The notes below the pieces were generated by a model. It was not told the DNA's origin. It saw nothing but the letters and a program-made list of their open reading frames with translations, and did not search any database. A program made the translations under genes and the position numbers. 64,000 nt of DNA from Bacteroidota bacterium (lineage in GTDB: Bacteria > Bacteroidota > Bacteroidia > Bacteroidales > WCHB1-69), in NCBI GenBank assembly GCA_009786185.1, contig WQTS01000139.1, positions 6,802-70,801 of the forward strand. The letters are read 5' to 3'. Of the stretch, positions 4,583 to 48,825 are shown piece by piece (position 1 is the first letter of the stretch; each line of letters starts with the position of its first letter).

Positions 4583-4589
4583 CAAAAAA

Positions 4590-4640
4590 CCCCTTCAGAA
4601 TTTGAAGGGGTAGACGACAAAGCCGGACGGAATAGTTTAA
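4590..4640 (-). terminator. Hairpin ccccttcagaatttgaagggg followed by a T-run on the minus strand; also a copy of the CCCCTTCAAAATTTGAAGGGG repeat family
   Basis: 8-bp GC-rich stem at 4590-4597/4603-4610. The minus strand reads hairpin then TTTTTTG, directly downstream of the minus-strand gene ending at 4637. The tail gacggaatagttta matches the family consensus gacggggtagttta. Confidence 0.6.
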
Positions 4641-12110: not shown

Positions 12111-12135
12111 TGTTAGGTGGCTCAAAAGCATACAG

Positions 12136-12275
12136 ATGACACAGACTGACACAAATTTTCTCTGTGGTTCTCTGTGTCTCCTCTGTGCAACTCTGTGTAT
12201 TTTTGAGGTTTTGTGCGTTTTTTTTATTTCACAGAGAACCACAGAGAAAGCACAGAGAGTTACAGAGGAAGTTTC
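12136..12275. repeat. CTCTGTG-word palindromic element
   Basis: Left arm ctctgtggttctctgtgtctcctctgtgcaactctgtg (about 12160-12200) is an imperfect reverse complement of the right arm cacagagaaccacagagaaagcacagagagttacagagg (about 12229-12270). A related copy lies at 29247-29336. Confidence 0.8.
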
Positions 12276-13075: not shown

Positions 13076-13174
13076 TCTGCACGGATATTGCAGATAATTT
13101 TCCAATCAATTGATAATGCTCTAACGTATTGTGAAAACTTTTTCTACATTTGCACCGTCGAAAACTATATCTGT

Positions 13175-13362
13175 TTAAACAAAAACTATAACGACTTAGA
13201 TAATAATTACAGAGACTTAAATAAAGCTATCATAGTTTACACAATAACTACAAAAATTTAGATAATAGCTAAATTAACTTAGACAAAAACTAAAACATTT
13301 TAGATAAAAACTAAAATAATTTAGATAAAAACTACAACAATTTAAACATTAACTAAAATACT
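13175..13362. repeat. Tandem array, about 9 units of 21 bp (consensus TTAGATAAAAACTAAAACAAT)
   Basis: Successive units start at 13175, 13196, 13217, 13237, 13258, 13279, 13300, 13321 and 13342. The three central units are near-identical. Confidence 0.85.
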
Positions 13363-13439
13363 ATACTTAATTATATCAACAAGCAACATTAAAGACCGTA
13401 ATCAATAAAAAATATCTATAAATCCGAAAGTATTTAATT

Positions 13440-14093
13440 ATGGCAACTTCAAAAAAAAATGAAACACAAGACAAAAAGAAAGAAAAACTGATTATTTCAG
13501 AAACCGAATTGAAAAAATTACACGATGAAGTGTATAATTTAACGCAACAGTTTCCTCAGATTTCGCAAGATATTGCCCTGTCGGATGCTGAACGTAAACA
13601 GATGCGCGGCTCCGGTATTCGCCGGTACGGATTCATTGATAAAGTGAGCGATTTGGCTATGGAAAACCCAAAGTTTGTGCCACCATATATGGACGTAAAT
13701 GAATTAAAGAATCTGATACGTCAGATTGAAGTGTTGCGTAATACTGCGGCAAATCTTCAGCAAATGCTCCGAATGGTAAACGATGAATTGCTCACAGACG
13801 GCAATGAAGCATACCGCCTTGCACTCATTTACTACAACTCTGTGAGTAGCGCTTCACGTAGTCGGGTGCCCGGCGCTGAAGCTCTGTTTAATACGTTGAG
13901 ACCGTTCTTTAAATCATCTTCGTCCAAAAGCACGGGCGAGCTTACCGAAAAGAAAGTAATGCACGATGCAAAGAAACTTATCAAGGGTAAGGCTGACGGA
14001 AAAATTATCATCAAAAACGAAAAACCTGCCACTTCCGGAGGCATTCACGAAGTAATTGACGAAGTGCACAGCGGACACACAGCTTTTGAGTAG
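13440..14093 (+). CDS. Hypothetical protein (Lys/Glu-rich, predicted helical)
   Basis: Long ORF with a coding-like composition. I recognise no motif. Confidence 0.5.
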   Translation: MATSKKNETQDKKKEKLIISETELKKLHDEVYNLTQQFPQISQDIALSDAERKQMRGSGIRRYGFIDKVSDLAMENPKFVPPYMDVNELKNLIRQIEVLRNTAANLQQMLRMVNDELLTDGNEAYRLALIYYNSVSSASRSRVPGAEALFNTLRPFFKSSSSKSTGELTEKKVMHDAKKLIKGKADGKIIIKNEKPATSGGIHEVIDEVHSGHTAFE

Positions 14094-17635: not shown

Positions 17636-18664
17636 ATGAAAAAAAATACACTATTAAGCCTCGTGCTGATGTTTGCAGGATTTATAGCCACAGCACAAAA
17701 CAATAGAATGATGCCTCATCATTTTTCCTCACAACACCCACAACTGGAATACTCGGATTTTGACTATTCTGATATGAAAAATCCCTATCTTCTATTGCAC
17801 AAAGCCAAATCAGGCAAAGATTGGTGGCAACCAGATACGGTATATGTGTATCCTCCCAATTCTGAACAGCCATCCCATCGAGAAATATTTTCTTATAATG
17901 CACAGGAATTGCTAACAGAATATTTACAGCAAAGCTGGCAAAATAACAATTGGGTGAACGACCGGAAAGATTTCTATACCTACGATACGCAGAATAAGCC
18001 TCTAACACGATTATCCCAAAGCTGGTATGGCACTAACTGGGTAAATAACTTTAGAAATATTTATACTTATGATGCACAGAATAACTTGATAACAGATTTA
18101 TTCCAAGGATGGTATGGCAATTGGGTGAATAGCTGGAGAGATACTTATACCTACGATGCGCAGAATAACTTACTAACAGAATTAGGCGAAACATGGCAAA
18201 CTGACAATTGGATGAATAGCGACAAAGGTATGTGGACTTATGATGAAAATAATAATAGTACCACAGTAGAATATTGGGTTTGGCAAGATGAGGATTGGCA
18301 GCAAGGTACAGTCCCTCTAACCTTATTCTACAACAATATGCAAAGTTATATCCGGGCATACAGTTCAGGGCATAAACGCACCGCCACCTACTTCAAATTA
18401 ATGACAAACATTGCCGAAAACGCCGCCGTCAATATTACGGTTTATCCAAACCCAACGAACGGACAATTACAAGTGAAGAGTTATGAGTTACAAGTTACAA
18501 GTATTTCCTTTTTCGATATTTACGGTAGAAGTATACAGACGCCGTCTATGTCGTTATCGTCTCCCGAAACTGTAATAGACCTTTCACATTTGCTGAGCGG
18601 TCTTTACTTTGTGAGAATATCCACCACTGTAGGAGAAATAGTTAAAAAGATATTGAAAGAGTAG
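17636..18664 (+). CDS. T9SS cargo protein with YD-like repeats
   Basis: Signal peptide. Repeated NWVN..YTYDAQNNLIT units. Type-A T9SS CTD (VYPNPTNGQLQV...FFDIYGRS...LSGLYFVRI...KKILKE). Confidence 0.75.
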   Translation: MKKNTLLSLVLMFAGFIATAQNNRMMPHHFSSQHPQLEYSDFDYSDMKNPYLLLHKAKSGKDWWQPDTVYVYPPNSEQPSHREIFSYNAQELLTEYLQQSWQNNNWVNDRKDFYTYDTQNKPLTRLSQSWYGTNWVNNFRNIYTYDAQNNLITDLFQGWYGNWVNSWRDTYTYDAQNNLLTELGETWQTDNWMNSDKGMWTYDENNNSTTVEYWVWQDEDWQQGTVPLTLFYNNMQSYIRAYSSGHKRTATYFKLMTNIAENAAVNITVYPNPTNGQLQVKSYELQVTSISFFDIYGRSIQTPSMSLSSPETVIDLSHLLSGLYFVRISTTVGEIVKKILKE

Positions 18665-23866: not shown

Positions 23867-26554
23867 CTAGTTTTTTAAGCTTTTCAACAACAACTCCCCT
23901 GTCCCAATCCGATAGCCCTCTGATTTGAATACAAGTTTTCCTTCTTTATTCACAATAAACACCAACGGATATTCTTCTCTAAATTCCTGATTGGTGGTAT
24001 TTAATACATAATTCATAAACATTGATTCCTTATCAATTTCGAAAATAGAGTTTACAGGTAAATTCCAACGTTTCGGGTTGAAATCGGCGGTATTTTTTTC
24101 GCCGGGAATCATAAATAAAATATTGCCTCCCCATTTATCAAAATCATTTTTTAATGCTGCCATATCGTTGAATAAGTGACGAGTAGGTTCGCGCGCGGGA
24201 TCAATAAAGCAAAGTATCAATTCTTTTTCCTGCATTAAGTCAATGAGCGCTAATGTGTGTTCCTTGCCGGAATACGGTGAGTTCACCTCAATTTCACCGT
24301 AAGTTTTATTTTGAGGAATTAGTTTGCGTAACGTAACGGTTTTGCTCACTGTTTTTCCGGGTTCAATATTGAAAAACTCTAATTGTGAAAGTGTTTCGCC
24401 GTCGCTATAACGATTTCCGGTAGAAAGCATGTAATAACCGGGTTCCAATTCTAATGTGGCAGGGAAAGCTGCTACCCGTGGATCATCTTGGTAATTAAAG
24501 GTTACAAAATCGCCGTCTGCGAATTTTGCGATGGTGTAGTGGGTCCAGTATTCGGGGGTTTTGGCGTTTTTGGGGAGGGTTAGGGTTAAATTTCCATATA
24601 AACTACCCCGTGACACCCCTTCAAAATTTGAAGGGGATTTAGTGCCTGCTACTTTCTCCTTTCTCCCTTCTTCCTCTAAATCCACCACATTCCATTTTTT
24701 ATTTTGCCATACGAATATTTGATTAGTAGCAGCGTCTAAATATGCCGGAATATCTAAGGCTCGGCAGGCTGCCACGAAGAAGATGTTTCGCGAATGTTCG
24801 TCTGTGAGTCTTAAATCGTAAACACCTTTGGGTGAGATGGAGGCACGAAAATAATTGTCGTCGGAGCGCAAACGAATATTTGCATCCATCCAATCCAGAA
24901 GTTGTTGAGAAGTTGCATTCTCTCCTAATTCTGCTTCCAAGTTATCGAGTAAATAATGACGCCACATGCGCAATCCTTCATTAGAAATCCGTGCAGGAAT
25001 TATTCCTTTTACATAAACATCGAAAGGATATTTTTTTGAATCAAATAAAGTAGTATGTTCCTGCAAAATATCAGCAGGTGCATCGCGCAGGTCTTTGTCG
25101 GAAAGTGCGTTTAAAAATTCATACACATATAATCCGGCTCTTTTTTTGCCGTTTTGTTCCACAAACTTTTTAATTTCCGCATAATTTCCTTCGCTTTTTT
25201 GAATGAAATACCATACTTGTTCCGGCGTAAGATTTTCTGTTTTAATGATTTTTGCGTCCTCTTCATTCATAAAAGTAGTCAGATAGGCATTACGCACAGA
25301 ATCATTATATTGTAAACGTCTATTATTGATGTCGTTTTGTTCTTTCGTTGCCACTTTCTTTTTGGTTCCGGCATCGGGCGGGAAAATGTCCAACCACTCC
25401 ACGTATTCTTTACCCTGCTCATTTTCAAGCCTTATGGTTAATTCATCATTTTTACGCACATCGAACTTTTGGTAGCCGTATTTTCTGTTTTTTGTTACCC
25501 ACACGAGCAAATCGCCATAACCGGTACTAAGAGTAGCAACACCGTCTTTATCAGTATTAGTGGAAGCAAGGGAATAATATTCAGCAAAATTATAGAGTTT
25601 GAATTTTACGATGGCATCTTGCACGGGCATATTATTTTTATCTACCACAATGACCTTTATCTTTTTAGTATTCGTATAATTAGAAGTTAGATTTACCACA
25701 GAATATAATTCGGTTTCCAAAGTACGTTCTCCAAAATCTCCGCTTTTCCCAAACACGTTGGTGTGCACCATCATAGCGCGAGTAACGGGAAGGGCAAACC
25801 AACCCATATCTAATTCAGGATCAGGCTCACAAGCACCCAGAAAGTGCCAATTGCCGTTCACCCAAACTTCTACCCAAGCGTGATTGCTATTGGTGTGCGC
25901 CCAACGCGGTGTGTAAATCTGACGTGCCGGAATCCCCATGGCGCGCATGGCAGTAACCGTTAAGGTAGATTCTTCGCCACAACGCCCAAAGCCGGTACGA
26001 ATGGTAGCCAACGGCGACGAAGTTCTCCTATCCGAAGGACGATACGTTACTTTTTCGTGACACCAGTGGTTAATTTCCAATGCAGCATCGTACATGCTCA
26101 TGTCTCTAATTCTGTCTTTTAACTCATTGAAAATCACCATCCGTGCCGTATCCAAATCTTCATTATTTACACGATATACCAGCACAAAATGGCGAAATAT
26201 ATCTTCGGGAATAGCTGCGCCCCAAGGCATTTCATCTTGTGCTTTGAATGCGTAACGTACTTGATCCAAAAAGAATTTGCCGTCATAATCAGCTAAATCG
26301 CTCAACGGCATATACGCATACAAAAATTGCAATGCTTCTTTCTCTTTGTGTGTCAGAGTTTTGTCATTAAAAACAAAAAACAACTCCGTAGTGCGATCTC
26401 CCGCCAGCACTTTTCGTGCCTCAAAATCGGCTTGCACCATTAAGCGATAAGATTTGTCGGTTAGAAAATGAGGATCTTTACCACAAGAAGAAAAAAGAAA
26501 AACGGCGATTGTTATAAAAAGCAACCGGCTCAATATTAGATTGTTTTGCTTCAT
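23867..26554 (-). CDS. Transglutaminase-like domain lipoprotein with thioredoxin-like C-terminal region; carries an in-frame repeat copy
   Basis: Lipobox (FSSC). Transglutaminase core GFGRCGEESTLTVTAMRAMGIPARQIYTPRW...NHAWVEVWVNGNWHFLGACEP (Cys/His/Asp). Confidence 0.75.
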   Translation of the reverse strand: MKQNNLILSRLLFITIAVFLFSSCGKDPHFLTDKSYRLMVQADFEARKVLAGDRTTELFFVFNDKTLTHKEKEALQFLYAYMPLSDLADYDGKFFLDQVRYAFKAQDEMPWGAAIPEDIFRHFVLVYRVNNEDLDTARMVIFNELKDRIRDMSMYDAALEINHWCHEKVTYRPSDRRTSSPLATIRTGFGRCGEESTLTVTAMRAMGIPARQIYTPRWAHTNSNHAWVEVWVNGNWHFLGACEPDPELDMGWFALPVTRAMMVHTNVFGKSGDFGERTLETELYSVVNLTSNYTNTKKIKVIVVDKNNMPVQDAIVKFKLYNFAEYYSLASTNTDKDGVATLSTGYGDLLVWVTKNRKYGYQKFDVRKNDELTIRLENEQGKEYVEWLDIFPPDAGTKKKVATKEQNDINNRRLQYNDSVRNAYLTTFMNEEDAKIIKTENLTPEQVWYFIQKSEGNYAEIKKFVEQNGKKRAGLYVYEFLNALSDKDLRDAPADILQEHTTLFDSKKYPFDVYVKGIIPARISNEGLRMWRHYLLDNLEAELGENATSQQLLDWMDANIRLRSDDNYFRASISPKGVYDLRLTDEHSRNIFFVAACRALDIPAYLDAATNQIFVWQNKKWNVVDLEEEGRKEKVAGTKSPSNFEGVSRGSLYGNLTLTLPKNAKTPEYWTHYTIAKFADGDFVTFNYQDDPRVAAFPATLELEPGYYMLSTGNRYSDGETLSQLEFFNIEPGKTVSKTVTLRKLIPQNKTYGEIEVNSPYSGKEHTLALIDLMQEKELILCFIDPAREPTRHLFNDMAALKNDFDKWGGNILFMIPGEKNTADFNPKRWNLPVNSIFEIDKESMFMNYVLNTTNQEFREEYPLVFIVNKEGKLVFKSEGYRIGTGELLLKSLKN
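24596..24677 (-). repeat. Composite repeat (GA-rich tract, CCCCTTCAAAATTTGAAGGGG hairpin, GGGGTAGTTTATAT) translated inside the transglutaminase-like CDS
   Basis: Its reverse complement aligns with 39536-39640: shared aatccccttcaaattttgaaggggtg ... ggggtagtttatat. Read in frame as ...EEEGRKEKVAGTKSPSNFEGVSRGSLYG... Confidence 0.85.
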
Positions 26555-27419: not shown

Positions 27420-28025
27420 TTACAAATCTACACCCACGCCAATTCTAAAAAACGGATAATAATTATGAGTGTAATTATTGATGGTGGGTTGGGTTATCGG
27501 AATATTAAAAAGTACTAAAGCTTGAAAAAAGACGCGCGGAGCGATATATTGTTTGTAGCCGCCGCCTACGACAGCAAAATGAAAATTGTAAGCTTGTGAA
27601 GGCGAGCCATCTAACCACCTAAAATGGTTTTGTTCAAATTCATAGCCTGCATGCACTACAATTCTCTTAATAATACATGGTTGCAGCGCCACGCCAAGCC
27701 CCCAAATATGCGAATCATAAAAATTTCTTTGCCACATGTAGGTGTATTGTCCATTTGCTATCACGAGCAACCAAGGCTTAATATAAACGCCCGCTTGCGG
27801 TGATATGCTCACTGCGCTACCAAAGTTTCCGAATTGCACGCCAAAGCCACCGCCAACAACAATTTTCGGTCTGCCTTTTTTTGCCGGTATCTCTTTTTGC
27901 AGGCTTTGCGGGGGCGGAGGGGTGTTTTGAGCGAAACAAGGCACAAAGGAGAAGGGAGAAAGGAGAAAGGAGAAAAAGAGAATTTTGAATTTTGAATTTT
28001 GAATTTTAAATTTTGGATTATTCAT
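27420..28025 (-). CDS. Small beta-barrel-like hypothetical protein; signal peptide encoded by repeat DNA
   Basis: N-terminus MNNPKFKIQNSKFKILFFSFLLSPFSFVPCFAQ, then an alternating aromatic/Gly-rich sequence ending ...FFRIGVGVDL. Confidence 0.5.
   Translation of the reverse strand: MNNPKFKIQNSKFKILFFSFLLSPFSFVPCFAQNTPPPPQSLQKEIPAKKGRPKIVVGGGFGVQFGNFGSAVSISPQAGVYIKPWLLVIANGQYTYMWQRNFYDSHIWGLGVALQPCIIKRIVVHAGYEFEQNHFRWLDGSPSQAYNFHFAVVGGGYKQYIAPRVFFQALVLFNIPITQPTINNYTHNYYPFFRIGVGVDL
27930..28016. repeat. GA-rich GGAGAA(A/G)G tract plus 7-bp tandem GAATTTT x about 5
   Basis: aaggagaagggagaaaggagaaaggagaaaaagag followed by aattttgaattttgaattttgaattttaaattttgg. It overlaps the first roughly 30 codons of the minus-strand ORF. 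Confidence 0.85.
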
Positions 28026-28040
28026 TTTGCAATATTATTT

Positions 28041-28155
28041 TTAAATATAAACTACCTAGTCCAGCTTTGCCGTTCATCCTTTCAAAATTTGAAGAGGATT
28101 TTTTCGTCATTCCGAGTAAAGCAAGGAATCTCCTCCTTTCTCCCTTCTCCTTTCT
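28041..28155 (-). repeat. Degenerate copy of the composite GA-rich / CTTCAAAATTTGAAG / TAGTTTATAT element
   Basis: The reverse complement reads agaaaggagaagggagaaaggagga ... aatcctcttcaaattttgaaaggat gaacggcaaagctggac taggtagtttatattt. Compare 4590-4640 and 39536-39640. Confidence 0.75.
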
Positions 28156-28157
28156 AC

Positions 28158-29156
28158 CTATTTACACGCTTGGCAAGCCGTAATCGCTACCAAACTCACA
28201 ATATCTTCTACAGAGCAGCCGCGCGACAAGTCGTTAATGGGAGCAGCCATCCCTTGCATAATCGGTCCAATTGCTTCTGCACCGGCAATACGTTGTACTA
28301 ATTTGTAAGCAATATTTCCTACTTCTAAGGTTGGGAATATCAATACGTTGGCTCTTCCGGCAATTTCGCTGTCAGGGGCTTTCGATTTTCCTACGCTGGG
28401 CACAATAGCAGCATCGGCTTGCAATTCGCCGTCAATTTTGAATTGGGGCGCCATCTCTTGTGCTATTTTGGTAGCGTTTCGCACTTTATCCACCATTTCG
28501 TGTTTAGCAGAACCTTTCGTGGAGAAGCTCAACAATGCCACACGCGGATCTAACTGTGCGATAGATTTTGCGGTTTGTGCCGTAACTACTGCAATTTCAG
28601 CTAATTCACGTTCGTTCGGATTCGGATGTGCTGCACAATCCGCCCACACCATCACGCCATTGTCGCCCCACTGCGGATCTTTAAACACCATAATGAAAGC
28701 ACCGGAAACCACGGAAACACCGGGTAATGTTTTCACCACTTGAAACGCCGGACGAAGCACGTCGCCGGTAGCGTTTAATGCGCCGGCAACTTCGCCATCC
28801 ACTTCTTTGTTTTTAATCAACAGCGTTGCCAAATACAACGGATCTTCTACCAAACGCAAGGCTTCTTCCGGTTGCATACCTTTGCTTTTGCGAATTTCGC
28901 AAAGCATTTCAGCATAAAATTCTTTCTTCGGATTATTTTTCGGGTCAATAATTTGTGCTTCTTTAACGTGAGTTAGGCCCCACTCTTTTGCTTGCGTTTC
29001 AATTTTCTCTTTGTTGCCCAACAGTACAATCTTTGCAAAGTCTTCTTTTATGATAATATCGGCGGCTTTCAACGTTCTTTCTTCTTCACCCTCAGGAAGT
29101 ACAATGGTTTTGTTTGCCGATTTGGCGGTTGCTTTAATTTGATCGATTAAATTCAT
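28158..29156 (-). CDS. pta: Phosphate acetyltransferase
   Basis: KTIVLPEGEEERTLKAA..., C-terminal ...PINDLSRGCSVEDIV..., about 330 aa, class I Pta pattern. Confidence 0.9.
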   Translation of the reverse strand: MNLIDQIKATAKSANKTIVLPEGEEERTLKAADIIIKEDFAKIVLLGNKEKIETQAKEWGLTHVKEAQIIDPKNNPKKEFYAEMLCEIRKSKGMQPEEALRLVEDPLYLATLLIKNKEVDGEVAGALNATGDVLRPAFQVVKTLPGVSVVSGAFIMVFKDPQWGDNGVMVWADCAAHPNPNERELAEIAVVTAQTAKSIAQLDPRVALLSFSTKGSAKHEMVDKVRNATKIAQEMAPQFKIDGELQADAAIVPSVGKSKAPDSEIAGRANVLIFPTLEVGNIAYKLVQRIAGAEAIGPIMQGMAAPINDLSRGCSVEDIVSLVAITACQACK

Positions 29157-29246: not shown

Positions 29247-29336
29247 TACACAGAGAGCCACAGAGAAGGCACAGAGAATCACGGAGGGTTTTCATCTCTG
29301 TGGTTCTCTGCGTCTTCTTCGTGTAACTCCGTGAAA
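29247..29336. repeat. CTCTGTG-word palindromic element (second copy, arms in opposite order)
   Basis: cacagagagccacagagaaggcacagagaatcacggagg ... ctctgtggttctctgcgtcttcttcgtgtaactccgtg. It lies in the divergent intergenic region between pta and the TPR gene. Confidence 0.8.
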
Positions 29337-34313: not shown

Positions 34314-37217
34314 ATGTTCACCCTCTATAAAGCCTCCGCCGGCTCCGGCAAAACCTCACGTTTAGTAGTAGAATATTTGGCGTTGTGCCTGCCACAGCCC
34401 GAAAAATTCAAACACGTACTTGCCATCACATTTACCAATAACGCTACCGCCGAAATGAAATCACGTATCGTGGATACGCTTTCTGAATTTGCTTTTGAAC
34501 CTGAAATTACTTCCAAGTTTCCCATTTATCATACATATAATCAAGTTATCGCAAAGATCGCATTGCATCTGCCTGAAAATGAGAAATTTCCTTACATAAA
34601 AAAACAATCGAAATTACTATTAGAGAAGATTTTATATGAATACGACCGCTTTTCCATCAGCACGATAGATAGTTTTTTTCAACGCATTTTGCGCGCTTTT
34701 GCTTTGGAGTTTGGGCTTTCTTCACAATTTAATTTAGAAATAGAATTGGACGATTTTTTCCGGGAAACGACCGCCGTTTTATTGCATCGCATTTCTAAAA
34801 ACAACGAACATCTTACCCAACGCGTGTTAGATTTAGTTGAAAATATGATGTTGGAAAAAGGGAAATGGAAAATTGAAAAAGAAATTCTCAAATTGTTGAA
34901 AATTAGTTTGGAAGAGGAGGTTTATCTTCCATTAAAAGAACTACAAGAATCTGAAAATACAGATTTTGAACAAGCGAAGAAAAAAATTAACCAAGAGATT
35001 TATCGTTTGAGAAATCAATTGAAAAACTTTACAACGAAAGAAGAGAAGAAGTCAGAGGCTTGCCTAATGCTCAAAGAACAATTGTTAGAGTATGAATTTT
35101 TTGGCAAAAATCTGTTTCAATTAGCATTGTTATTTGATTTAAAGATGATTATGGATGAAATTAAAATGCAAGACAATCTCTTTTATCTTTCGGAAACCAA
35201 TACCAAAATAAAGGAAAAATTGGGCAACGATGACGTTCCTTTTATCTACGAAAAAATTGGGAATCAATACTCTTATTTTTTTATTGATGAGTTTCAGGAC
35301 ACATCTAAGTTACAGTGGCAAAACATGATACCGCTACTAAGAGAAGCATTGGCAGGTACAAACAGATTTTACGAGCAGGGAAAAGTTTTTCTTTTCGGCG
35401 ATGTGAAACAGGCGATTTACCGTTTTCGCAACGGCGATGCAGATATTTTACAACAACTTTCTAACATTGAAGGTTACAAATCTGCCGTTTTGCCCTATTC
35501 AAAGCCGGAAGAAGATTATCGCGTGGAGTTATTGGATACTAATTTTCGCTCTTCAAAAAAAGTAATAGAATTTAATAATGCATTTTTTGATTTTTTAACT
35601 GCTGAAAACGGACCTTTTCACGAAGCGAAAGACTTTTACGAAGATGTGAAGCAAAAAACAAAACCCACCGCCGAAGAAGGCTTGGTAACGGTGCGTTTTC
35701 AAGAAGAGGAAGATAACCGCAAGTTTCAGGAATTTATGCCGGAACATGTCTTGGAAACTGTTTTAGACGCACTTCAACGCGGATACGCCTACAAAAATAT
35801 TGCCGTATTAGTGAGCAACAATGATTCGGCGAGCGCCATAGGCACATTTTTAATTGCCAACAACATCCCGATTATTTCTGCCGAATCGTTGCAACTGTCC
35901 GCATCCTCCGAAATTAATCTGTTGATCGCCACTTTGCAATATTTGGTTTCTGAAGAAGACAAATTGGCAAAATTGACAATGATTCATTATTTGGCGCAAC
36001 AAAATAACCTCCTATTAGAAAATTACATGCCTTGCATGCAAAATGAGCATGCCTTCCAACAGTTTTTAACAAATATTAATATCAACATTAGCAGAAAAAA
36101 ATTAAATTCACTTCCTTTATTCACCTTAATAGTCGAACTAAGTCGAATTATGTCGCTCTCCGTATGCAACCCATTTCTAATAAGATTATTAGACGAAACC
36201 GAAAAATTCGCCACAAAACGCAACGGTTCTACTCCCTTATTTTTAGAGTGGTGGGAAGAAAAAGGGCAAACCCTGGCGCTTTCTACTCCTCCGGGCATTG
36301 ATGCCGTAACAATTTCTACCATTCACAAATCCAAAGGATTAGAATATCCTGTTGTAATTTTTCCATTTAGCCGCTACAGCAATTTTAAAACCAAACCCGA
36401 TATATTTGTGAAAGATGAAAATCGCGTTACCGGTTTAGAATACGATTGGGTAACTTTATCCGATAAAAAAACGCCCGCGCGCTACCGGCACAAATACGCC
36501 GAAGAATCAAAGAAAACGCTGATTGATCAGTTAAACAAGTTGTATGTTGCCCACACCCGCGCGAGAACCGAGTTGCACATCATTACCGAAAAACCAAATG
36601 CGAGGGCGGGGAATTATAGTAAGTTTTTGGCAGCGTTCGGTGCGAGATATGAGGTTGGAGGTATGCGGTACGAGGTGTGCGGTGAGCGGTATGCGGTGGA
36701 CGGTGAATGGGAAATAAAAGGCAGAAAACAGAAAACAAAAAGCAATACACCACTTTGCGAACCATCTCTTCTGCCCTCTGCTCATCACCTCGCACCTCAC
36801 ACCTCATACCGCATACCGCATACCACCCAGCAACTCCGCGGCATCTTCATCCACAATTTCTTATCTTCTTTAACAACGTTTCCTCAAAACGAAAAAGAGA
36901 TAGACTGGGTGGTACAAAACGTAGAGGAAGCGTACAAAAAAGATCTTGCAAATATTTTTTATAAAATTCTGAATGACAAATCACTATCTCCATACTTTGT
37001 TTCGGAAGTAAAGGTGTTGAATGAAACTTCCATTTTGTTCCCAAACGGCAATTTATTGCGCCCCGACCGTGTAGTTTTTTTAGAAGACCGAACAGCGGTC
37101 ATTGACTATAAAACAGGCGAACCCAATGCTTCGCACAAAGAGCAGTTAGAACAATATTGTGAGGCTATTCGTGCGATGGGGTATGGAAATGTAGAGGGGC
37201 ATATTTTGTATGTATAA
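34314..37217 (+). CDS. UvrD-type helicase with C-terminal PD-(D/E)XK nuclease (AddA/RecB-like); carries an in-frame palindromic insertion
   Basis: Walker A ASAGSGKT, FIDEFQDTS, helicase motif VI-like LYVAHTRART, C-terminal nuclease motif RPDRVVF...IDYKTGE. Confidence 0.75.
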   Translation: MFTLYKASAGSGKTSRLVVEYLALCLPQPEKFKHVLAITFTNNATAEMKSRIVDTLSEFAFEPEITSKFPIYHTYNQVIAKIALHLPENEKFPYIKKQSKLLLEKILYEYDRFSISTIDSFFQRILRAFALEFGLSSQFNLEIELDDFFRETTAVLLHRISKNNEHLTQRVLDLVENMMLEKGKWKIEKEILKLLKISLEEEVYLPLKELQESENTDFEQAKKKINQEIYRLRNQLKNFTTKEEKKSEACLMLKEQLLEYEFFGKNLFQLALLFDLKMIMDEIKMQDNLFYLSETNTKIKEKLGNDDVPFIYEKIGNQYSYFFIDEFQDTSKLQWQNMIPLLREALAGTNRFYEQGKVFLFGDVKQAIYRFRNGDADILQQLSNIEGYKSAVLPYSKPEEDYRVELLDTNFRSSKKVIEFNNAFFDFLTAENGPFHEAKDFYEDVKQKTKPTAEEGLVTVRFQEEEDNRKFQEFMPEHVLETVLDALQRGYAYKNIAVLVSNNDSASAIGTFLIANNIPIISAESLQLSASSEINLLIATLQYLVSEEDKLAKLTMIHYLAQQNNLLLENYMPCMQNEHAFQQFLTNININISRKKLNSLPLFTLIVELSRIMSLSVCNPFLIRLLDETEKFATKRNGSTPLFLEWWEEKGQTLALSTPPGIDAVTISTIHKSKGLEYPVVIFPFSRYSNFKTKPDIFVKDENRVTGLEYDWVTLSDKKTPARYRHKYAEESKKTLIDQLNKLYVAHTRARTELHIITEKPNARAGNYSKFLAAFGARYEVGGMRYEVCGERYAVDGEWEIKGRKQKTKSNTPLCEPSLLPSAHHLAPHTSYRIPHTTQQLRGIFIHNFLSSLTTFPQNEKEIDWVVQNVEEAYKKDLANIFYKILNDKSLSPYFVSEVKVLNETSILFPNGNLLRPDRVVFLEDRTAVIDYKTGEPNASHKEQLEQYCEAIRAMGYGNVEGHILYV
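36636..36832. repeat. Palindromic element with GGTATGCGGT/GAGGTGTG-word arms, inside the helicase-nuclease CDS
   Basis: Left arm gaggtatgcggtacgaggtgtgcggtgagcggtatgcggtgg is an imperfect reverse complement of the right arm cacctcgcacctcacacctcataccgcataccgcataccaccc. They flank an A-rich core and are translated as ...GARYEVGGMRYEVCGERYAVDGEWEIKGRKQKTK...HLAPHTSYRIPHTT... Confidence 0.85.
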
Positions 37218-38880: not shown

Positions 38881-38937
38881 AGATTGCTAAAAGGCAAATA
38901 TTAAGCAGATATGAGAAATTTTAATGCGTTTTTTCTA

Positions 38938-38979
38938 CTTTTTTATACAAATGTTGTCATTAATGTTATTTTTGGCAAC
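38938..38979 (+). promoter_or_regulatory. Conserved promoter-proximal block containing a TAttTTTG -7 box (copy 1, upstream of grpE)
   Basis: cttttttatacaaatgttgtcattaatgttatttttggcaac matches 46767-46809 at about 37 of 42 positions by eye. Confidence 0.55.
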
Positions 38980-39042: not shown

Positions 39043-39537
39043 ATGTTTATGAGTAAAAAAAAGAACAACAAAGAGATCGAGCTTAATGAGCAAGTTGAAA
39101 TTCTAAATGCAGAAAAAGCAGAATTAAATGATCGCTTTTTGCGCCTTTATTCAGAATTTGAAAATTATAAAAAACGAACCAACAAGGAAAAATTAGACCT
39201 TATAGCCACCGCTTCAGAAAGAGTTATCTTAGGACTGCTCCCTATTGTGGATGATTACGAAAGAGCCATTAAACACAACCAAAACACAGAAGATATTGCC
39301 ACTTTAAAAGAAGGATTTACGCTTATTTACAGCAAATTATTAACATTATTAAAACGTTTTGAAGTAGAAGAAATCATCGCTTTAGGCGAAATCTTTGATA
39401 CCGATTTGCACGAAGCAGTTACGCATCTTCCCGCACAATGCGAAGAAGATAAAGGAAAAATAATGGACGTTACCGAAAAAGGATACAAGCTGAAAGACAA
39501 GGTGATACGGTTCTCGAAAGTGGTAGTGGCAAATTAG
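39043..39537 (+). CDS. grpE: Nucleotide exchange factor GrpE
   Basis: RLYSEFENYKKRTNKE ... GLLPIVDDYERA ... pattern, directly upstream of dnaJ. Confidence 0.9.
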   Translation: MFMSKKKNNKEIELNEQVEILNAEKAELNDRFLRLYSEFENYKKRTNKEKLDLIATASERVILGLLPIVDDYERAIKHNQNTEDIATLKEGFTLIYSKLLTLLKRFEVEEIIALGEIFDTDLHEAVTHLPAQCEEDKGKIMDVTEKGYKLKDKVIRFSKVVVAN

Positions 39538-39640
39538 GAGAAAGGGAGAAGGGAGAAAATGGGAGAAAGAAGGGAAACGGAAGAATAATCCCCTTCAAAT
39601 TTTGAAGGGGTGGCTCGCGAAGCGAGACGGGGTAGTTTAT
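39536..39640 (+). repeat. Composite repeat (GA-rich tract, CCCCTTCAAATTTTGAAGGGG hairpin, ctcgcgaagcgag hairpin, GGGGTAGTTTATAT) filling the grpE-dnaJ spacer
   Basis: Best-preserved copy of the family also seen at 4590-4640, 24596-24677 and 28041-28155. It ends 16 nt before the dnaJ ATG. Confidence 0.85.
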
Positions 39641-39655
39641 ATTAAAAAAAGTTAA

Positions 39656-40956: not shown

Positions 40957-42498
40957 ATGAGAAAAATATTACTTTTCTTTACCATTTTAATAACTACAAC
41001 TACCATCTCGCTTGCCCAAGAGCGCTTAGTAACCCGTGGCGCAAACTCCGGCGAATTATATTTAACCACTGATTGGTACGGAATATATCAACCTATGGGA
41101 CCTCCATTTTATGACACCCTGTATAGATCCGTTTTCCGGTTGACCGAAAATGGTAAGAAATTAACCATACCATATTCCTTAAATCTTATAGGTAGCTATC
41201 CCATACATGAAGTAATGTATCCCAGTATTATCCTTGCAGATGCCACACCCGGAGTAGTATATAACAAGTATTCCTATATAAGTGGTAGTAACCGTACGCA
41301 ACTTTGGGTAAGTTTCGATTATGGGAAAAATTGGTTGCTTAGAGAAGACAGTATAGGAAGAAGAAGATTTCATGTAGCAAATGTTGAAGGTTTTATATAT
41401 AGAGCAGGAAGTGATGGAACATACAAAAGCGAAAATTATGGTGATTTTTTCTCTAAAATAGATATTGTGTCCGCAGGGTCTGAACCTGGCTTGCTTAGTG
41501 GGGAAGCTTTTAGTATAGGTACTTACAACTCTTACCAAGGTAGATTTTTACATACATATAATTTTTATGAAACTTATACAGAAGTTCCTTTAGACAGCCA
41601 ATTTGTCTTTGGCAACGTGATGGGTATATTCCCTGATGTTTACCGGGGAGGTAAAGAAGGCGAGGTGTATGTGAGCTCTGCATTTCCGGACGGAACATAC
41701 AGAGTATCTTTTAGCGCAGATATCGGGCAAACTTTTCGTCATGTGCATATTTGTTATGGTTTTGATTGTTTTCTCATAACAGGTAACGGGGTTGAAATAG
41801 CAACCACTTTTATGTCAGACCGCGAGCCGGGCGTTTTTTATATCATCAAAACCTATTGGGTAGAAGATCTAAATCCTTGGGGTTTCCACAAAAAAATTTG
41901 TATTATGTATTACCGGGACTACGGAGAAACATTGGAAGCTACTTTTTGCCACAATATTACTAAAAACTATGAATATAAGGAAGTAAATTGTGATTATGCT
42001 ACCTTGTTAGAATCAAATGTTAATCAAAATTCAATTCAATTACAATGGAACTGTTCGGCAAATAATTCGTACATTCGTGGTTATCATATTTACAGAAACA
42101 ACATGCGCATAACCACCCAATTACTAATGGAATCTACCTACTTAGATGAAAACTTACCTAATGGTAATTATGAGTATTATGTGAGAACGTATTATGTTGA
42201 AGGCTGTGTATCAGACAGTTCAAATCATGTAAGAGAAACTATTGAACTTGGAGTTAAGGAAATTAAGGAATTAGAAGGAGTTATTTTATTACCAAATCCA
42301 ACCACAGGTAAGTTACAAGTTCAAAGTTCAAAGTTTAAAGTGACAAGTGTAGAGGTTTTTGATGTATATGGAAGAAAGCAGAAGGCAGAAAGCAGAAAGC
42401 AGAATGAAATAGATATTTCAGAATTGCAAACAGGTATCTATTTTGTAAGACTTCAAACTGAAAAAGGAATTACAACAAAAAAAATAGTAAAACATTAA
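40957..42498 (+). CDS. T9SS cargo protein with Fn3-like domain
   Basis: Signal peptide, IQLQWNCSANNSYIRGYHIYRNN (Fn3-like), type-A CTD (LLPNPTTGKLQV...VFDVYGRK...TGIYFVRL). Confidence 0.7.
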   Translation: MRKILLFFTILITTTTISLAQERLVTRGANSGELYLTTDWYGIYQPMGPPFYDTLYRSVFRLTENGKKLTIPYSLNLIGSYPIHEVMYPSIILADATPGVVYNKYSYISGSNRTQLWVSFDYGKNWLLREDSIGRRRFHVANVEGFIYRAGSDGTYKSENYGDFFSKIDIVSAGSEPGLLSGEAFSIGTYNSYQGRFLHTYNFYETYTEVPLDSQFVFGNVMGIFPDVYRGGKEGEVYVSSAFPDGTYRVSFSADIGQTFRHVHICYGFDCFLITGNGVEIATTFMSDREPGVFYIIKTYWVEDLNPWGFHKKICIMYYRDYGETLEATFCHNITKNYEYKEVNCDYATLLESNVNQNSIQLQWNCSANNSYIRGYHIYRNNMRITTQLLMESTYLDENLPNGNYEYYVRTYYVEGCVSDSSNHVRETIELGVKEIKELEGVILLPNPTTGKLQVQSSKFKVTSVEVFDVYGRKQKAESRKQNEIDISELQTGIYFVRLQTEKGITTKKIVKH

Positions 42499-46759: not shown

Positions 46760-46766
46760 AAATTTT

Positions 46767-46809
46767 CACTTTTTTATACAAGTATTGCCATTAATGCTAT
46801 TTTTGCAAC
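46767..46809 (+). promoter_or_regulatory. Conserved promoter-proximal block with TAttTTTG -7 box (copy 2, upstream of dnaX)
   Basis: cacttttttatacaagtattgccattaatgctatttttgcaac; see 38938-38979. Confidence 0.55.
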
Positions 46810-46868: not shown

Positions 46869-48002
46869 ATGGATAATTTCATTGTTTCCGCCCGTAAATA
46901 CCGCCCATCCACATTTAACACAGTGGTAGGGCAAGATTCTATCGTTTCTACTCTCAAAAACGCAATCAAAACACAACAAGTAGCACAAGCATTTCTGTTT
47001 TGCGGTCCGCGGGGAGTGGGCAAAACCACCTGCGCCCGTATATTTGCAAAAGCACTTAACTGCCACCATCTTACTCCGGATTTTGAACCTTGCAACGAGT
47101 GTGAATCCTGCAAATCGTTCAACGCATCGGCATCTTTCAATGTGTATGAATTGGATGCCGCTTCCAATAATTCCGTAGAAGATATTCGTTCGTTAGTAGA
47201 ACAGGTGCGTATCAGTCCGCAGGGAGCCAAATTTAAAGTGTATATCATTGATGAGGTTCACATGCTTTCTAATCAAGCATTTAATGCTTTTTTAAAAACG
47301 CTGGAAGAACCTCCTGCGTATGCTAAATTTATCTTGGCAACTACGGAAAAACATAAAATTATTCCCACTATTTTATCACGTTGTCAAGTATATGATTTTA
47401 AGCGCATTGGAGATAACGACATTATGAAGCATTTGGCTTACGTAGCAAGCAATGAAGCCGTGCAAGCCGAAGAAGAAGCATTGCGCGTGGTAGCCTCAAA
47501 AGCCGACGGCGCGCTAAGGGATGCACTCTCCATTTTCGACCAGTTGGTAAGCTTCTCCGGAAAAAATATTACCTACCAAACCACCATTCAACATCTGAAT
47601 GTGTTAGATGTAGATAACTATTTTAAAATGACCGACTTTTTATTTAGCGAAGATAGCTCCGATGCACTTTTACTTTTTGATGAAATTTTAAACCGCGGTT
47701 TCGACGGACAACACTTTATTTCCGGATTGGCCGCACATTTTCGCCAGTTGTTAATGGCGCAAAACCCTGCTACCATCAAATTAATGGAGGTCTCCGATAC
47801 CGTAAAACAACGTTTTTTCGAACAAGCCAAAAAAGCCGATAAACAGTTGTTACTCCGTGGATTAGAATTAGCCAACCAGTGCGATTTTAATTACAAACTA
47901 TCTCAAAACAAACGTCTTAGCGTAGAAATCTGTTTGATGCAAATCAATGGAAATTACGTATATAAGCTAAACGCAGGCGTCAGGCAATCACGGGAGAAAT
48001 AG
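46869..48002 (+). CDS. dnaX: DNA polymerase III subunit gamma/tau, N-terminal (domains I-III, gamma-like) ORF
   Basis: AAA+ clamp-loader motifs FLFCGPRGVGKTT, Zn module CHHLTPDFEPCNECESC, YIIDEVHML, SRC motif (ILSRCQVYDF). Confidence 0.9.
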   Translation: MDNFIVSARKYRPSTFNTVVGQDSIVSTLKNAIKTQQVAQAFLFCGPRGVGKTTCARIFAKALNCHHLTPDFEPCNECESCKSFNASASFNVYELDAASNNSVEDIRSLVEQVRISPQGAKFKVYIIDEVHMLSNQAFNAFLKTLEEPPAYAKFILATTEKHKIIPTILSRCQVYDFKRIGDNDIMKHLAYVASNEAVQAEEEALRVVASKADGALRDALSIFDQLVSFSGKNITYQTTIQHLNVLDVDNYFKMTDFLFSEDSSDALLLFDEILNRGFDGQHFISGLAAHFRQLLMAQNPATIKLMEVSDTVKQRFFEQAKKADKQLLLRGLELANQCDFNYKLSQNKRLSVEICLMQINGNYVYKLNAGVRQSREK

Positions 48003-48033
48003 TGTAGAGCCCTCGCCCACCGGAGTAGGCAAT

Positions 48034-48825
48034 TTGGTGCCCTCCACCAGCCCACAGCAATCCACACGCGGATTCGTGGCGCCATCCTCCATGCCCGTAA
48101 AGAAAACACCGGATATTACCGATATTATCGGAGAGAAAGAGGTGAGCGGTAAGAGGTATAAGGTGAGCGGTGAAGAAGTAGAAAGCGAACCGATTGTAGG
48201 GGCGCAAAATCTTGCGCCCAGTGCCAAAGAAAAAGAAGGAGAGAGAAAAGATGAGAGAGAAAAGGAGAAAGAGGAAGCAAGAAGAGAAACGGAAGAAAAA
48301 TTCCTTCTCCTTTCTGAGGAGAAGGTGGCAGACGACGGCTTGCCGGCGGCTGACGGAAGAGGTGATGAAGAACAAAGTGATAAATCAACTGAAACACAAC
48401 CTCAATCGAAAGAAGAACCATTACATACCACGAACCTCGCACCGCATACCGCAACCCACACACCGCAACCCGCACCCGATTTCCCCACCCACTGGCGCAC
48501 CATGTTCAACCACGTCTTCGCATCCGTGCCCACCATCTATTTCTCATTAAAAGAAACATTACCCGAAATAGAAAACAACATCATCAAAGTCGTCGTCAAA
48601 AATGATATTCAAAAAGAACATTTTGAAGCTAAAATAAGAGACGTTTTAGAATTTTTACGCACGAATTTCAATGAACAAGTAGAAGAGATAATTGTAGAGG
48701 CTAACGAACAATTGGAAACCAAGAAAATTATTTACGATGTAAAAGACAAATTGCAAAATTTCAAAGAGCAAAACTCTGAATTTGACGATTTTATACAAAT
48801 ATTAGAACTAAAAATAAAAGACTAA
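48034..48825 (+). CDS. DnaX C-terminal (tau-specific-like) region as a separate ORF in the +1 frame
   Basis: The C-terminal roughly 110 aa (WRTMFNHVF..IYFSLKETLPEIENNIIKVVVKNDIQKEHFEAKIRDVLEFLRTNF...) resemble the conserved C-terminus of full-length Bacteroidota DnaX. The N-terminal two-thirds is repeat-derived low complexity. This frame is open from 47971. Confidence 0.6.
   Translation: MVPSTSPQQSTRGFVAPSSMPVKKTPDITDIIGEKEVSGKRYKVSGEEVESEPIVGAQNLAPSAKEKEGERKDEREKEKEEARRETEEKFLLLSEEKVADDGLPAADGRGDEEQSDKSTETQPQSKEEPLHTTNLAPHTATHTPQPAPDFPTHWRTMFNHVFASVPTIYFSLKETLPEIENNIIKVVVKNDIQKEHFEAKIRDVLEFLRTNFNEQVEEIIVEANEQLETKKIIYDVKDKLQNFKEQNSEFDDFIQILELKIKD
48128..48480. repeat. Nested composite repeat block in the dnaX linker
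   Basis: Outer GGTGAGCGGT/GGTATGCGGT-word arms (48135-48178 and 48421-48478) enclose the hairpin ggggcgcaaaatcttgcgccc, a GA-rich tract (48225-48295) and the 74-nt double-hairpin module (48295-48368). Confidence 0.8.

Follow-up and report, generated by a model that had tools for sequence, protein, structure and literature searches.

The stretch analyzed here comprises 64,000 nucleotides (nt) of contig WQTS01000139.1 from a Bacteroidota bacterium (assembly GCA_009786185.1; Bacteroidales, WCHB1-69) and contains a dnaX gene divided between two open reading frames (ORFs). In data of the Joint Genome Institute (JGI) the stretch belongs to a 123-kb contig of metagenome 3300002127, whose projects probably sampled guts of higher termites. 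We refer to the whole stretch as the window; all positions are given in it, and L-numbers denote retrieved loci of relatives or of other Bacteroidota. ORF1 encodes the ATPase part of DnaX, and ORF2 encodes the C-terminal domain of the tau subunit preceded by a linker, most of which is a nested repeat mosaic of approximately 340 bases (48141-48477) that is read in frame.

The split dnaX gene and its junction

The gene is made up of the following elements.

46869-48002, + strand: dnaX ORF1, 377 amino acids (aa), with clamp-loader ATPase domains I-III and a gamma-sized product; it ends with TAG at 48000-48002.
47979-47996, + strand: invariant junction block GTCAGGCAATCACGGGAG, a candidate +1 recoding signal, read as V R Q S R E in frame 0 and as (S)GNHG(R) in frame +1.
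47983-48132, + strand (+1 frame): conserved first ~50 codons of the tau linker, GNHGR...PQQSTRGFVAPSSMPVKKTPDITDII, conserved in 37 distinct sequences.
48478-48825, + strand: tau C-terminal domain (DFPTHW...KIKD) and stop, corresponding to positions 489-613 of the 614 in PRK14971 (E 2.2e-6).

ORF1 carries the Pfam domains DNA_pol3_delta2 and DNAX_ATPase_lid and matches positions 1-360 of PRK14971, the NCBIfam profile for Bacteroidota DnaX (614 positions; E 2.5e-204). The repeat-bearing ORF2 is open from 47968 to 48825 in the +1 frame relative to ORF1, and its match to the same profile occupies its last 125 residues. Because the profile is covered from 1 to 360 in ORF1 and from 489 to 613 in ORF2, the two ORFs together correspond to full-length tau. 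The repeat insertion sits between profile positions 360 and 489, in the stretch that separates domain III from the C-terminal domain. With weaker support, the C-terminal domain of ORF2 can also be aligned with the very ends of DnaX proteins that other Bacteroidota encode in a single ORF; it is 42-87% identical across 49 metagenome loci, and a sequence search of the Protein Data Bank with this domain gave zero matches.

The stop codon of ORF1 is not an error, as the 120 best ORF1 homologs (80-98% identity) all share this end point, where an invariant RQSRE precedes the last 1-5 residues; their lengths are 375-381 aa, except for one of 425 aa. We compared the junction across 45 loci, namely the window and those 44 of the 49 metagenome loci, retrieved through the C-terminal domain, that have enough upstream DNA. 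The C-terminal domain lies in the +1 frame in all 45, behind stop-free linkers of 77-220 aa whose length differences are all multiples of 3. The 15-mer AGGCAATCACGGGAG is exact in 44 of the 45 loci and the block extends to the 18-nt GTCAGGCAATCACGGGAG, with flanking codons that vary at synonymous sites. The frame-0 reading of this block includes GTC, AGG and CGG, which rank as the three rarest sense codons among the genes of the window. Unlike other split dnaX genes in Bacteroidota, the junction has no poly-A run. We lean towards a programmed +1 junction at which the ribosome shifts in a manner dependent on rare codons, and the site may represent a new, undescribed type of +1 recoding site. 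The adjacent release-factor gene prfB starts at ATG 51084 without a frame break and offers no +1 comparison.

Codon-position variation points to where translation in the new frame begins. Entropies at the three codon positions are 0.55/0.43/1.23 over the first ~50 linker codons (37 distinct sequences) and 0.84/0.72/1.35 in the +1 frame over the 16 codons right after the junction block. As third-position variation starts there, +1 translation begins at the junction itself rather than from a start codon further downstream; the gene call of JGI places the start of ORF2 at ATG 48091, which is absent in L003 and others. In the variable parts of the linkers, 2,794 tau-frame codons contain 0 stops against ~164 expected from composition, compared with 45-297 stops in the other five frames. 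These counts support translation of the tau linker and selection for an open frame. The antisense ORFs, which an earlier note on this DNA had singled out as possibly expressed, are by-products of composition, since antisense frames are closed in most relatives. The same note had described the repeats as staying open in one frame and contributing about 115 aa; this is confirmed, except that the frame is not that of the dnaX ATPase ORF, whose stop at 48002 and the associated +1 break it had overlooked.

Split dnaX genes of another kind occur in many other Bacteroidota, where an A10 run stands at the junction (L017, L023, L030, L031, L036, L038, L043, L044, L053, L054, L058, L066, L075, L076, L078, L079 and L082). 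The second ORF in these cases is mostly in the -1 frame, with two cases in +1, and the junctions are of the known transcriptional-slippage type. Three further loci (L022, L039, L048) have a short dnaX without a long downstream ORF. Just 5' of dnaX and of grpE, a 43-nt sequence ending in TATTTTTG is shared at 86% identity (38932-38974 and 46763-46805) and may be a common promoter or operator.

The repeat mosaic and its relatives

After the conserved start of the linker, the mosaic consists of the following components.

48141-48175, + strand: left arm of the outer foldback, five GGTNNNN heptamers (GGTGAGC GGTAAGA GGTATAA GGTGAGC GGTGAAG); pairs with the right arm in predicted folds.
48196-48219, + strand: module D, a GTAG-tagged perfect hairpin resembling repetitive extragenic palindromes (REPs), GTAG GGGCGCAA aatc TTGCGCCC; peptide VGAQNLAP.
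48226-48298, + strand: GA-rich degenerate heptamer tract of the GGAGAAA type, 36 nt longer than in L120; peptide KEKEGERKDEREKEKEEARRETEE.
48290-48368, + strand: module A, with leader CGGAAGAAAAAT, hairpin 1 (H1; 48303-48311/48317-48325), TGG, hairpin 2 (H2; 48329-48352) and tail ACGGAAGAGGTGATGA; peptide KFLLLSEEKVADDGLPAADGRGDE.
48369-48423, + strand: 55-nt spacer (...DKSTETQPQSKEEP...) common to the L120 scaffold (~70% identity by pairwise alignment).
48424-48477, + strand: right arm of the outer foldback, ~7.5 NNNNACC heptamers of the same family as 36786-36824; peptide HTTNLAPHTATHTPQPAP.

All five components of the nested pile-up that the earlier note had proposed, with at least four repeat families forming most of the dnaX linker, are thus found where it had placed them. 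Predicted folds of the mosaic join the two outer arms by pairing and contain the hairpins D, H1 and H2 (z -2.6 as DNA, -2.9 as RNA); the perfect stems of its hairpins measure 8-9 bp. The exact 244-aa repeat-bearing product is present in 7 contigs, among them contigs assembled independently from two further sequencing runs, which excludes an assembly artifact.

The arms belong to a class of heptamer repeats that is enriched in the window. Allowing up to one mismatch, GGTGAGCGGT occurs 7 times against 1.2 expected, with exact copies only in the left arm and in an element at 36681. Period-7 arrays number 11 against 1.4 expected, and other short periods show no enrichment; at a stricter threshold there are 6 period-7 arrays against 0 expected and none at other periods from 4 to 12. 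Module D forms 8 perfect pairs (48200-48207/48212-48219) around a 4-nt loop, with GTAG (48196-48199) directly 5'. The hairpin is identical in the 98% relative L002/L120 (24/24), and variants with other stems are found in L102, L118 and L129; further examples of GTAG with a stem-loop occur in L102, L118, L121 and L129. D has a single copy in the 64-kb window and is counted as a family on the strength of the variants in relatives. In 364 kb of related DNA, GC-rich perfect hairpins number 98, of which 2-4 are GTAG tagged. The module A region is 86% identical over 105 nt to aroC 1460-1564, in agreement with the earlier note, which had recognized a 74-nt double-hairpin module common to both genes, and the 34-nt core of A has 2 matches in the window against 0 expected. 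Module A shares with a second module, B, a plan consisting of a GA arm, AAT, hairpin 1, TGG, hairpin 2 and ACGG..., and the H2 hairpins of B contain GCGAAGC. A 'TEAQPQPNE' motif related to the spacer recurs in other tau linkers and in the UvrD-like linker of L002.

Database scans returned little for these elements. An Rfam scan of the whole window at gathering thresholds found tRNA only, and an E-value scan of 47900-48600 gave chance-level matches only. The core of module B had zero matches among viral contigs. A 19-mer of the A core matched two phage contigs; the matches lie inside an ordinary ORF (...SDEEKVADAVK...) without hairpin context and are coincidental.

Comparison of linkers across relatives, a check that had been named beforehand, revealed different mosaics of the same modules. 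The 42 distinct orthologous linkers share ~50 residues (GNHGR...PQQSTRGFVAPSS.P.KKTPDITDII) and then diverge completely, over a variable part of 27-115 residues that is built from few modules, each always read in one frame.

Module A, peptide KFLLLSEEKVADGGLPPDDGRGD: the window and 9 other tau-linker loci, same frame.
Module B, peptide KSPSNFEGVDGEAGRGSLYE: at least 9 loci.
Module C, peptide I(L/A)(R/G)(F/Q)A(Q/R)NDK: several loci.
Type D, peptides VGAQNLAP, VGATFTVAQ and similar: the window, L120, L102, L118 and L129.
Two further modules, peptides NTLNPDFQKAPLVA and INLRESVESASSAC: several loci.
Heptamer arrays, 7-residue periodic peptides: many loci.

Because relatives carry a different mosaic at the same spot, the linker appears to be a tolerated dumping ground for such elements. 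This agrees with the earlier suggestion that the repeats are tolerated in linkers, given 42 varied linkers with 0 stops and the same modules in an AroC loop and a UvrD-like linker. In more distant relatives (L005/L127/L135 at ~83%; L007 at 79%) the linkers are ordinary and free of these repeats. L007 was the sole close relative given by a scan of GTDB genomes, which places the lineage no lower than Bacteroidales. The same linker in genomes devoid of the repeat families, which would have spoken against that suggestion, was not encountered. In a more distant group (L130-L134), linkers of 196-220 aa contain 12-nt repeats (GEIG/GEVS/REVD) in varying number, and the linker has become variable by another route.

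The same families are found at further sites in the window.

1459-1564, + strand: sister copy, GA heptamer array plus module A, in frame in the hot-spot loop of aroC (1008-2012).
36638-36824, + strand: sister GGT/ACC heptamer foldback, in frame in the post-core linker of a UvrD-like helicase (34314-37217); fold z -3.5.
24596-24680, - strand: GA array plus module B, in frame and in the usual frame, in the transglutaminase-like ORF 23867-26554 (-); ...EEEGRKEKVAGTKSPSNFEGVSRGSLYGNLTLTL....
39527-39642, + strand: GA array plus module B (sister of A), immediately 3' of the grpE stop codon.
4560-4640, 28045-28160 (-) and 39527-39642: module B copies directly after the stops of an AMP-binding/acyltransferase ORF, pta and grpE.

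AroC holds a second hypervariable hot spot. Chorismate synthases of solved structure can be aligned with the protein before and after the repeat, which occupies a loop between GIEIHAW and GDTFGALVH, and 65 AroC homologs (310-376 aa) differ essentially only at this loop, where A, B, C, NLTVLQSYGLTV and CRDAMHCVST-type hairpin peptides appear in varied combinations; a homolog of 80% identity is labelled Lentimicrobiaceae. At the UvrD-like linker, the 98% relative carries an unrelated repeat mosaic at the same point (L002:2230-2470). Module B is found at four window sites and in tau, AroC and transglutaminase-like genes of relatives, and module A in tau, aroC and L002:10689, with copies in the same frame in many AroC proteins. 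Host domains are left intact, with insertions lying between domains in tau, between aligned blocks in AroC and after the helicase core in the UvrD-like protein. Three host proteins show the family peptides KFLLLSEEKVADGG..DGRG (A) and SPSNFEGV..GRGSLYE (B). The window has six A/B copies, every one of them in sense orientation to its local gene, and a given module always uses one of its two open frames; for two of the three B copies that follow stop codons, the usual module frame continues the frame of the upstream ORF past the stop.

The window contains further arrays. Heptamer arrays of AAGTTAC, AAGTTCA and AGAAAGC (18478-18502; 42310-42341; 42373-42404) lie within the coding sequence of C-terminal sorting domains of the type IX secretion system. 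A GGAGAAA array (27945-28014) and its complement (28133-28159) flank ~160 nt holding modules C and B; a (GAATTTT)5 array adjoins this unit and extends over the nominal start of ORF 27420-28025. At 13161-13370, 5' of ORF 13440-14093, there is an AT-rich tandem array with periods of 21/42/62 nt and TTAGATAAAAACTAAAATAAT-like units. Inverted arrays of 10-11-nt units (TCTCTGTGG / CACAGAGAA) are present in intergenic DNA at 12132-12258 and 29249-29333 with 85% identity and constitute another foldback family with a different period.

Turnover of the linker and competing explanations

Relatives display the mosaic in stages that suggest how it was assembled. L107 has only abutting arms, L118 has arms with a GTAG hairpin, and the fullest forms (the window, L120 and L091) have a GA tract and module A or B in addition to arms and hairpin; this series supports insertion into the foldback center. 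The module A copy at L002:10689 carries an extra element nested in its H2 loop. Comparison of the window with its 98% relative (L002, the same as L120) revealed a second process: the whole scaffold is common to both, including the leader ACGGAAGAAAAAT, and module A in one stands where module B stands in the other. This is a cassette swap, so not every difference is an insertion. Between the two loci, array length changes by +21 nt, equal to three GGCAGAA heptamers, and by +36 nt; all differences are multiples of 3.

Together, these observations lead us to propose, with a probability of a little under 0.8, that the tau linker is a hypervariable site at which small non-autonomous repeats have built up a nested mosaic, reached through a +1 shift and filtered for an open frame. 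Ribosomes would reach the linker only via the +1 change at the conserved block just before the stop of the gamma-sized ORF. Elements probably arrive by insertion into the centers or loops of older palindromes, and recombination or gene conversion between copies with common leaders may then reshuffle them, with A and B acting as interchangeable cassettes. Arrays would lengthen or shorten by slippage of heptamers, and selection would remove frame breaks, stops and unacceptable peptides. What survives would be a hydrophilic spacer rich in E/K/G/S/P without a specific function. Our best guess for the mobilizing enzyme is an HUH-type single-strand transposase of the REP-associated tyrosine transposase (RAYT) kind, a guess prompted by the GTAG tag, by DNA mini-hairpins of the GCGAAGC type and by the lack of target duplications. 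GCGAAGC forms an unusually stable DNA mini-hairpin (PMC13037366), and its presence in the H2 hairpins of B is at most a hint of a single-stranded DNA intermediate.

Several points weigh against this proposal. No empty sites or target-site duplications were found around arms or modules in the window or its relatives. Individual insertions and their order are thus drawn from the comparative series rather than directly observed, and the exact order of events cannot be reconstructed; the earlier idea of reading it from flanking duplications came to nothing. No transposase linked to the modules is present in the 64 kb of genome. Covariation of the module B hairpins (13 copies) gave 87% pairing, no better than shuffled controls, and word matching between left and right arm heptamers across 6 orthologous loci was equaled in 1209 of 5000 permutations; neither result is significant. 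Neutral insertion followed by filtering explains only in part the combination of sense orientation and a single frame. Finally, the putative disorder of the linker is argued from composition only: the 115 repeat-coded residues are 42% charged with a mean hydropathy of 0.335, on the disordered side of the charge-hydropathy plot. Single-sequence AlphaFold produced a weak model in which the GA tract is a long E/K helix (predicted local distance difference test [pLDDT] ~76); with an overall pLDDT of 47 and no alignment, the run tells little about disorder or the C-terminal fold.

That single frame and the sense orientation of coding copies are what would be expected if the repeat-coded peptides were functional and their variation adaptive, with, for example, stiff E/K helices or acidic spacers serving as translated cassettes that tune how long or stiff the tau tether from clamp loader to polymerase is, or that diversify it, for example against phage proteins aimed at replisome linkers. 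Modules are read in the same one of their two open sense frames in tau, AroC and transglutaminase-like proteins, the GA tract is predicted to be a long helix, and the hot spots include two DNA-metabolism proteins, an echo of the bias of intragenic REPs (PMC3733652). We nevertheless consider this explanation improbable. The content, order and length of the mosaic vary almost freely in close relatives while distant ones manage with ordinary linkers, the same cassettes occupy an AroC enzyme loop and intergenic DNA, and the bias in frame and orientation can stem from selection against hydrophobic or Cys/Trp-rich readings.

The significant folding of the mosaic raises the alternative that the repeats act as nucleic acid, with hairpins that modulate the +1 change and the tau:gamma ratio, slow ribosomes, stabilize mRNA or terminate antisense transcription. 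H1 together with AATTTTTCTT forms a predicted intrinsic-terminator-like site on the minus strand, the three B copies directly after stop codons are all in sense orientation, and REPs elsewhere are thought to be RNA elements (PMC3733652). A sense-strand terminator was considered and rejected, as no terminator-like site is predicted on that strand. The repeats, however, start ~145 nt 3' of the junction block, far from the usual 5-9 nt spacing of frameshift stimulators, their structures differ among relatives that keep an identical junction, and there are no Rfam matches, making a nucleic-acid role even less probable than a peptide one.

That the region is an untranslated spacer between a gamma-only dnaX and an independent DUF8439 gene, or an artifact of assembly or sequencing, has in its favor that gene callers annotate two genes (JGI from ATG 48091), that an ATG lies at 48503 within the conserved HWRTMF motif and that four of six frames are largely open in the window itself, but it is highly improbable and already contradicted by the +1 relation kept in 45/45 loci despite differing linker lengths, zero stops in the tau frame only, a codon-position signal from the junction onward, the lack of a conserved start codon, the ORF1 stop kept in 120 homologs and, for an artifact, the identical product from independent assemblies.

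Beyond the nested, frame-filtered mosaic itself, we can envisage a bolder reading, which we hold tentatively and consider on balance rather unlikely. It would have a Bacteroidales lineage of the termite-gut type in which translated, mutually homing cassettes (heptamer foldbacks and modules A-D) favor one another as targets for insertion and exchange, create a few hypervariable sites in linkers and loops of essential proteins (tau, the UvrD-like helicase and AroC) and drive rapid linker evolution. The tau site would lie downstream of an undescribed, non-homopolymeric +1 programmed signal made of the three rarest codons and needed for tau.

Comparison with known systems

Split dnaX genes that need recoding for tau have been described (Antonov et al. 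2013, PMC3711429; Atkins et al. 2016, PMC5009743). At the DNA level the junctions in these reports are -1; they contain A7-A10 runs and are attributed to transcriptional slippage. As in the Antonov-type genes, the gamma-sized ORF here ends in frame 0, the C-terminal part of tau lies in an overlapping second ORF and the arrangement is conserved across many genomes. The present junction differs in being +1, in having no homopolymer and in its invariant 18-nt block holding the three rarest codons, and bacterial +1 frameshift sites could thereby gain a new type. A +1 change for tau would also affect annotation, as the subunit is currently split into "dnaX" and a DUF8439 protein.

The heptamer arrays have counterparts elsewhere, such as the heptanucleotide short tandemly repeated repetitive (STRR) sequences of cyanobacteria. 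Long simple sequence repeats were reportedly the subject of work by Mrazek et al. in 2007. TAACTGA repeats are a further heptanucleotide example (PMC4679880). The window shares with such repeats a specific period-7 excess, many different words and slippage-type changes in copy number. Here, in contrast, the arrays form inverted pairs that serve as foldback arms around other modules, and many are located inside coding sequence, which retains only those variants whose net change is 3n bases.

[quoted passage not shown] They differ from MITEs in that no target-site duplications and no parent insertion sequence were found, and viral scans were negative or coincidental.

Intragenic REPs of the GTAG and CGTC types, notably in replication and repair genes, encode 20-82 aa (Di Nocera et al. 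2013, PMC3733652). Module D matches the GTAG type in having GTAG directly before an 8-bp stem with a 4-nt loop. The present elements also resemble intragenic REPs in clustering within ORFs, in their replication and repair hosts (here DnaX tau and the UvrD-like helicase) and in lacking target duplications. The published survey (PMC3733652), on the other hand, did not report GTAG REPs in Bacteroidetes. Copy number in the sampled DNA is low and no RAYT gene was seen in the window and the short loci, unlike REP/RAYT systems, and unlike simple REPs, modules A and B each comprise two hairpins together with conserved single-stranded joints.

Alongside the intragenic REPs, the closest likeness is to the Rickettsia palindromic elements (RPEs), MITE-like repeats that occur in frame in coding genes (Ogata et al. 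2000, reviewed in PMC10969869). Both are short dispersed palindromes inserted in frame in unrelated housekeeping genes at tolerated protein sites, with a fixed frame and a conserved peptide per family and no known associated transposase. If our interpretation is correct, selfish palindromic repeats can account for two-thirds of a linker in an essential subunit of the replisome and can be replaced between strains that are nearly identical, a natural experiment on the sequence freedom of the tau tether. Selfish DNA of the Rickettsia type in genes would then extend to Bacteroidota, with a hot-spot and cassette character undescribed for RPEs. In contrast to RPEs, several families are stacked or nested at one site (~113 aa), heptamer-array arms are part of the elements, and the same few sites are hypervariable between close relatives, whereas an RPE is one stable insertion. 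The phylum differs as well (Bacteroidota, Bacteroidales), and we class the elements described here as the same kind as RPEs, not as the same family.

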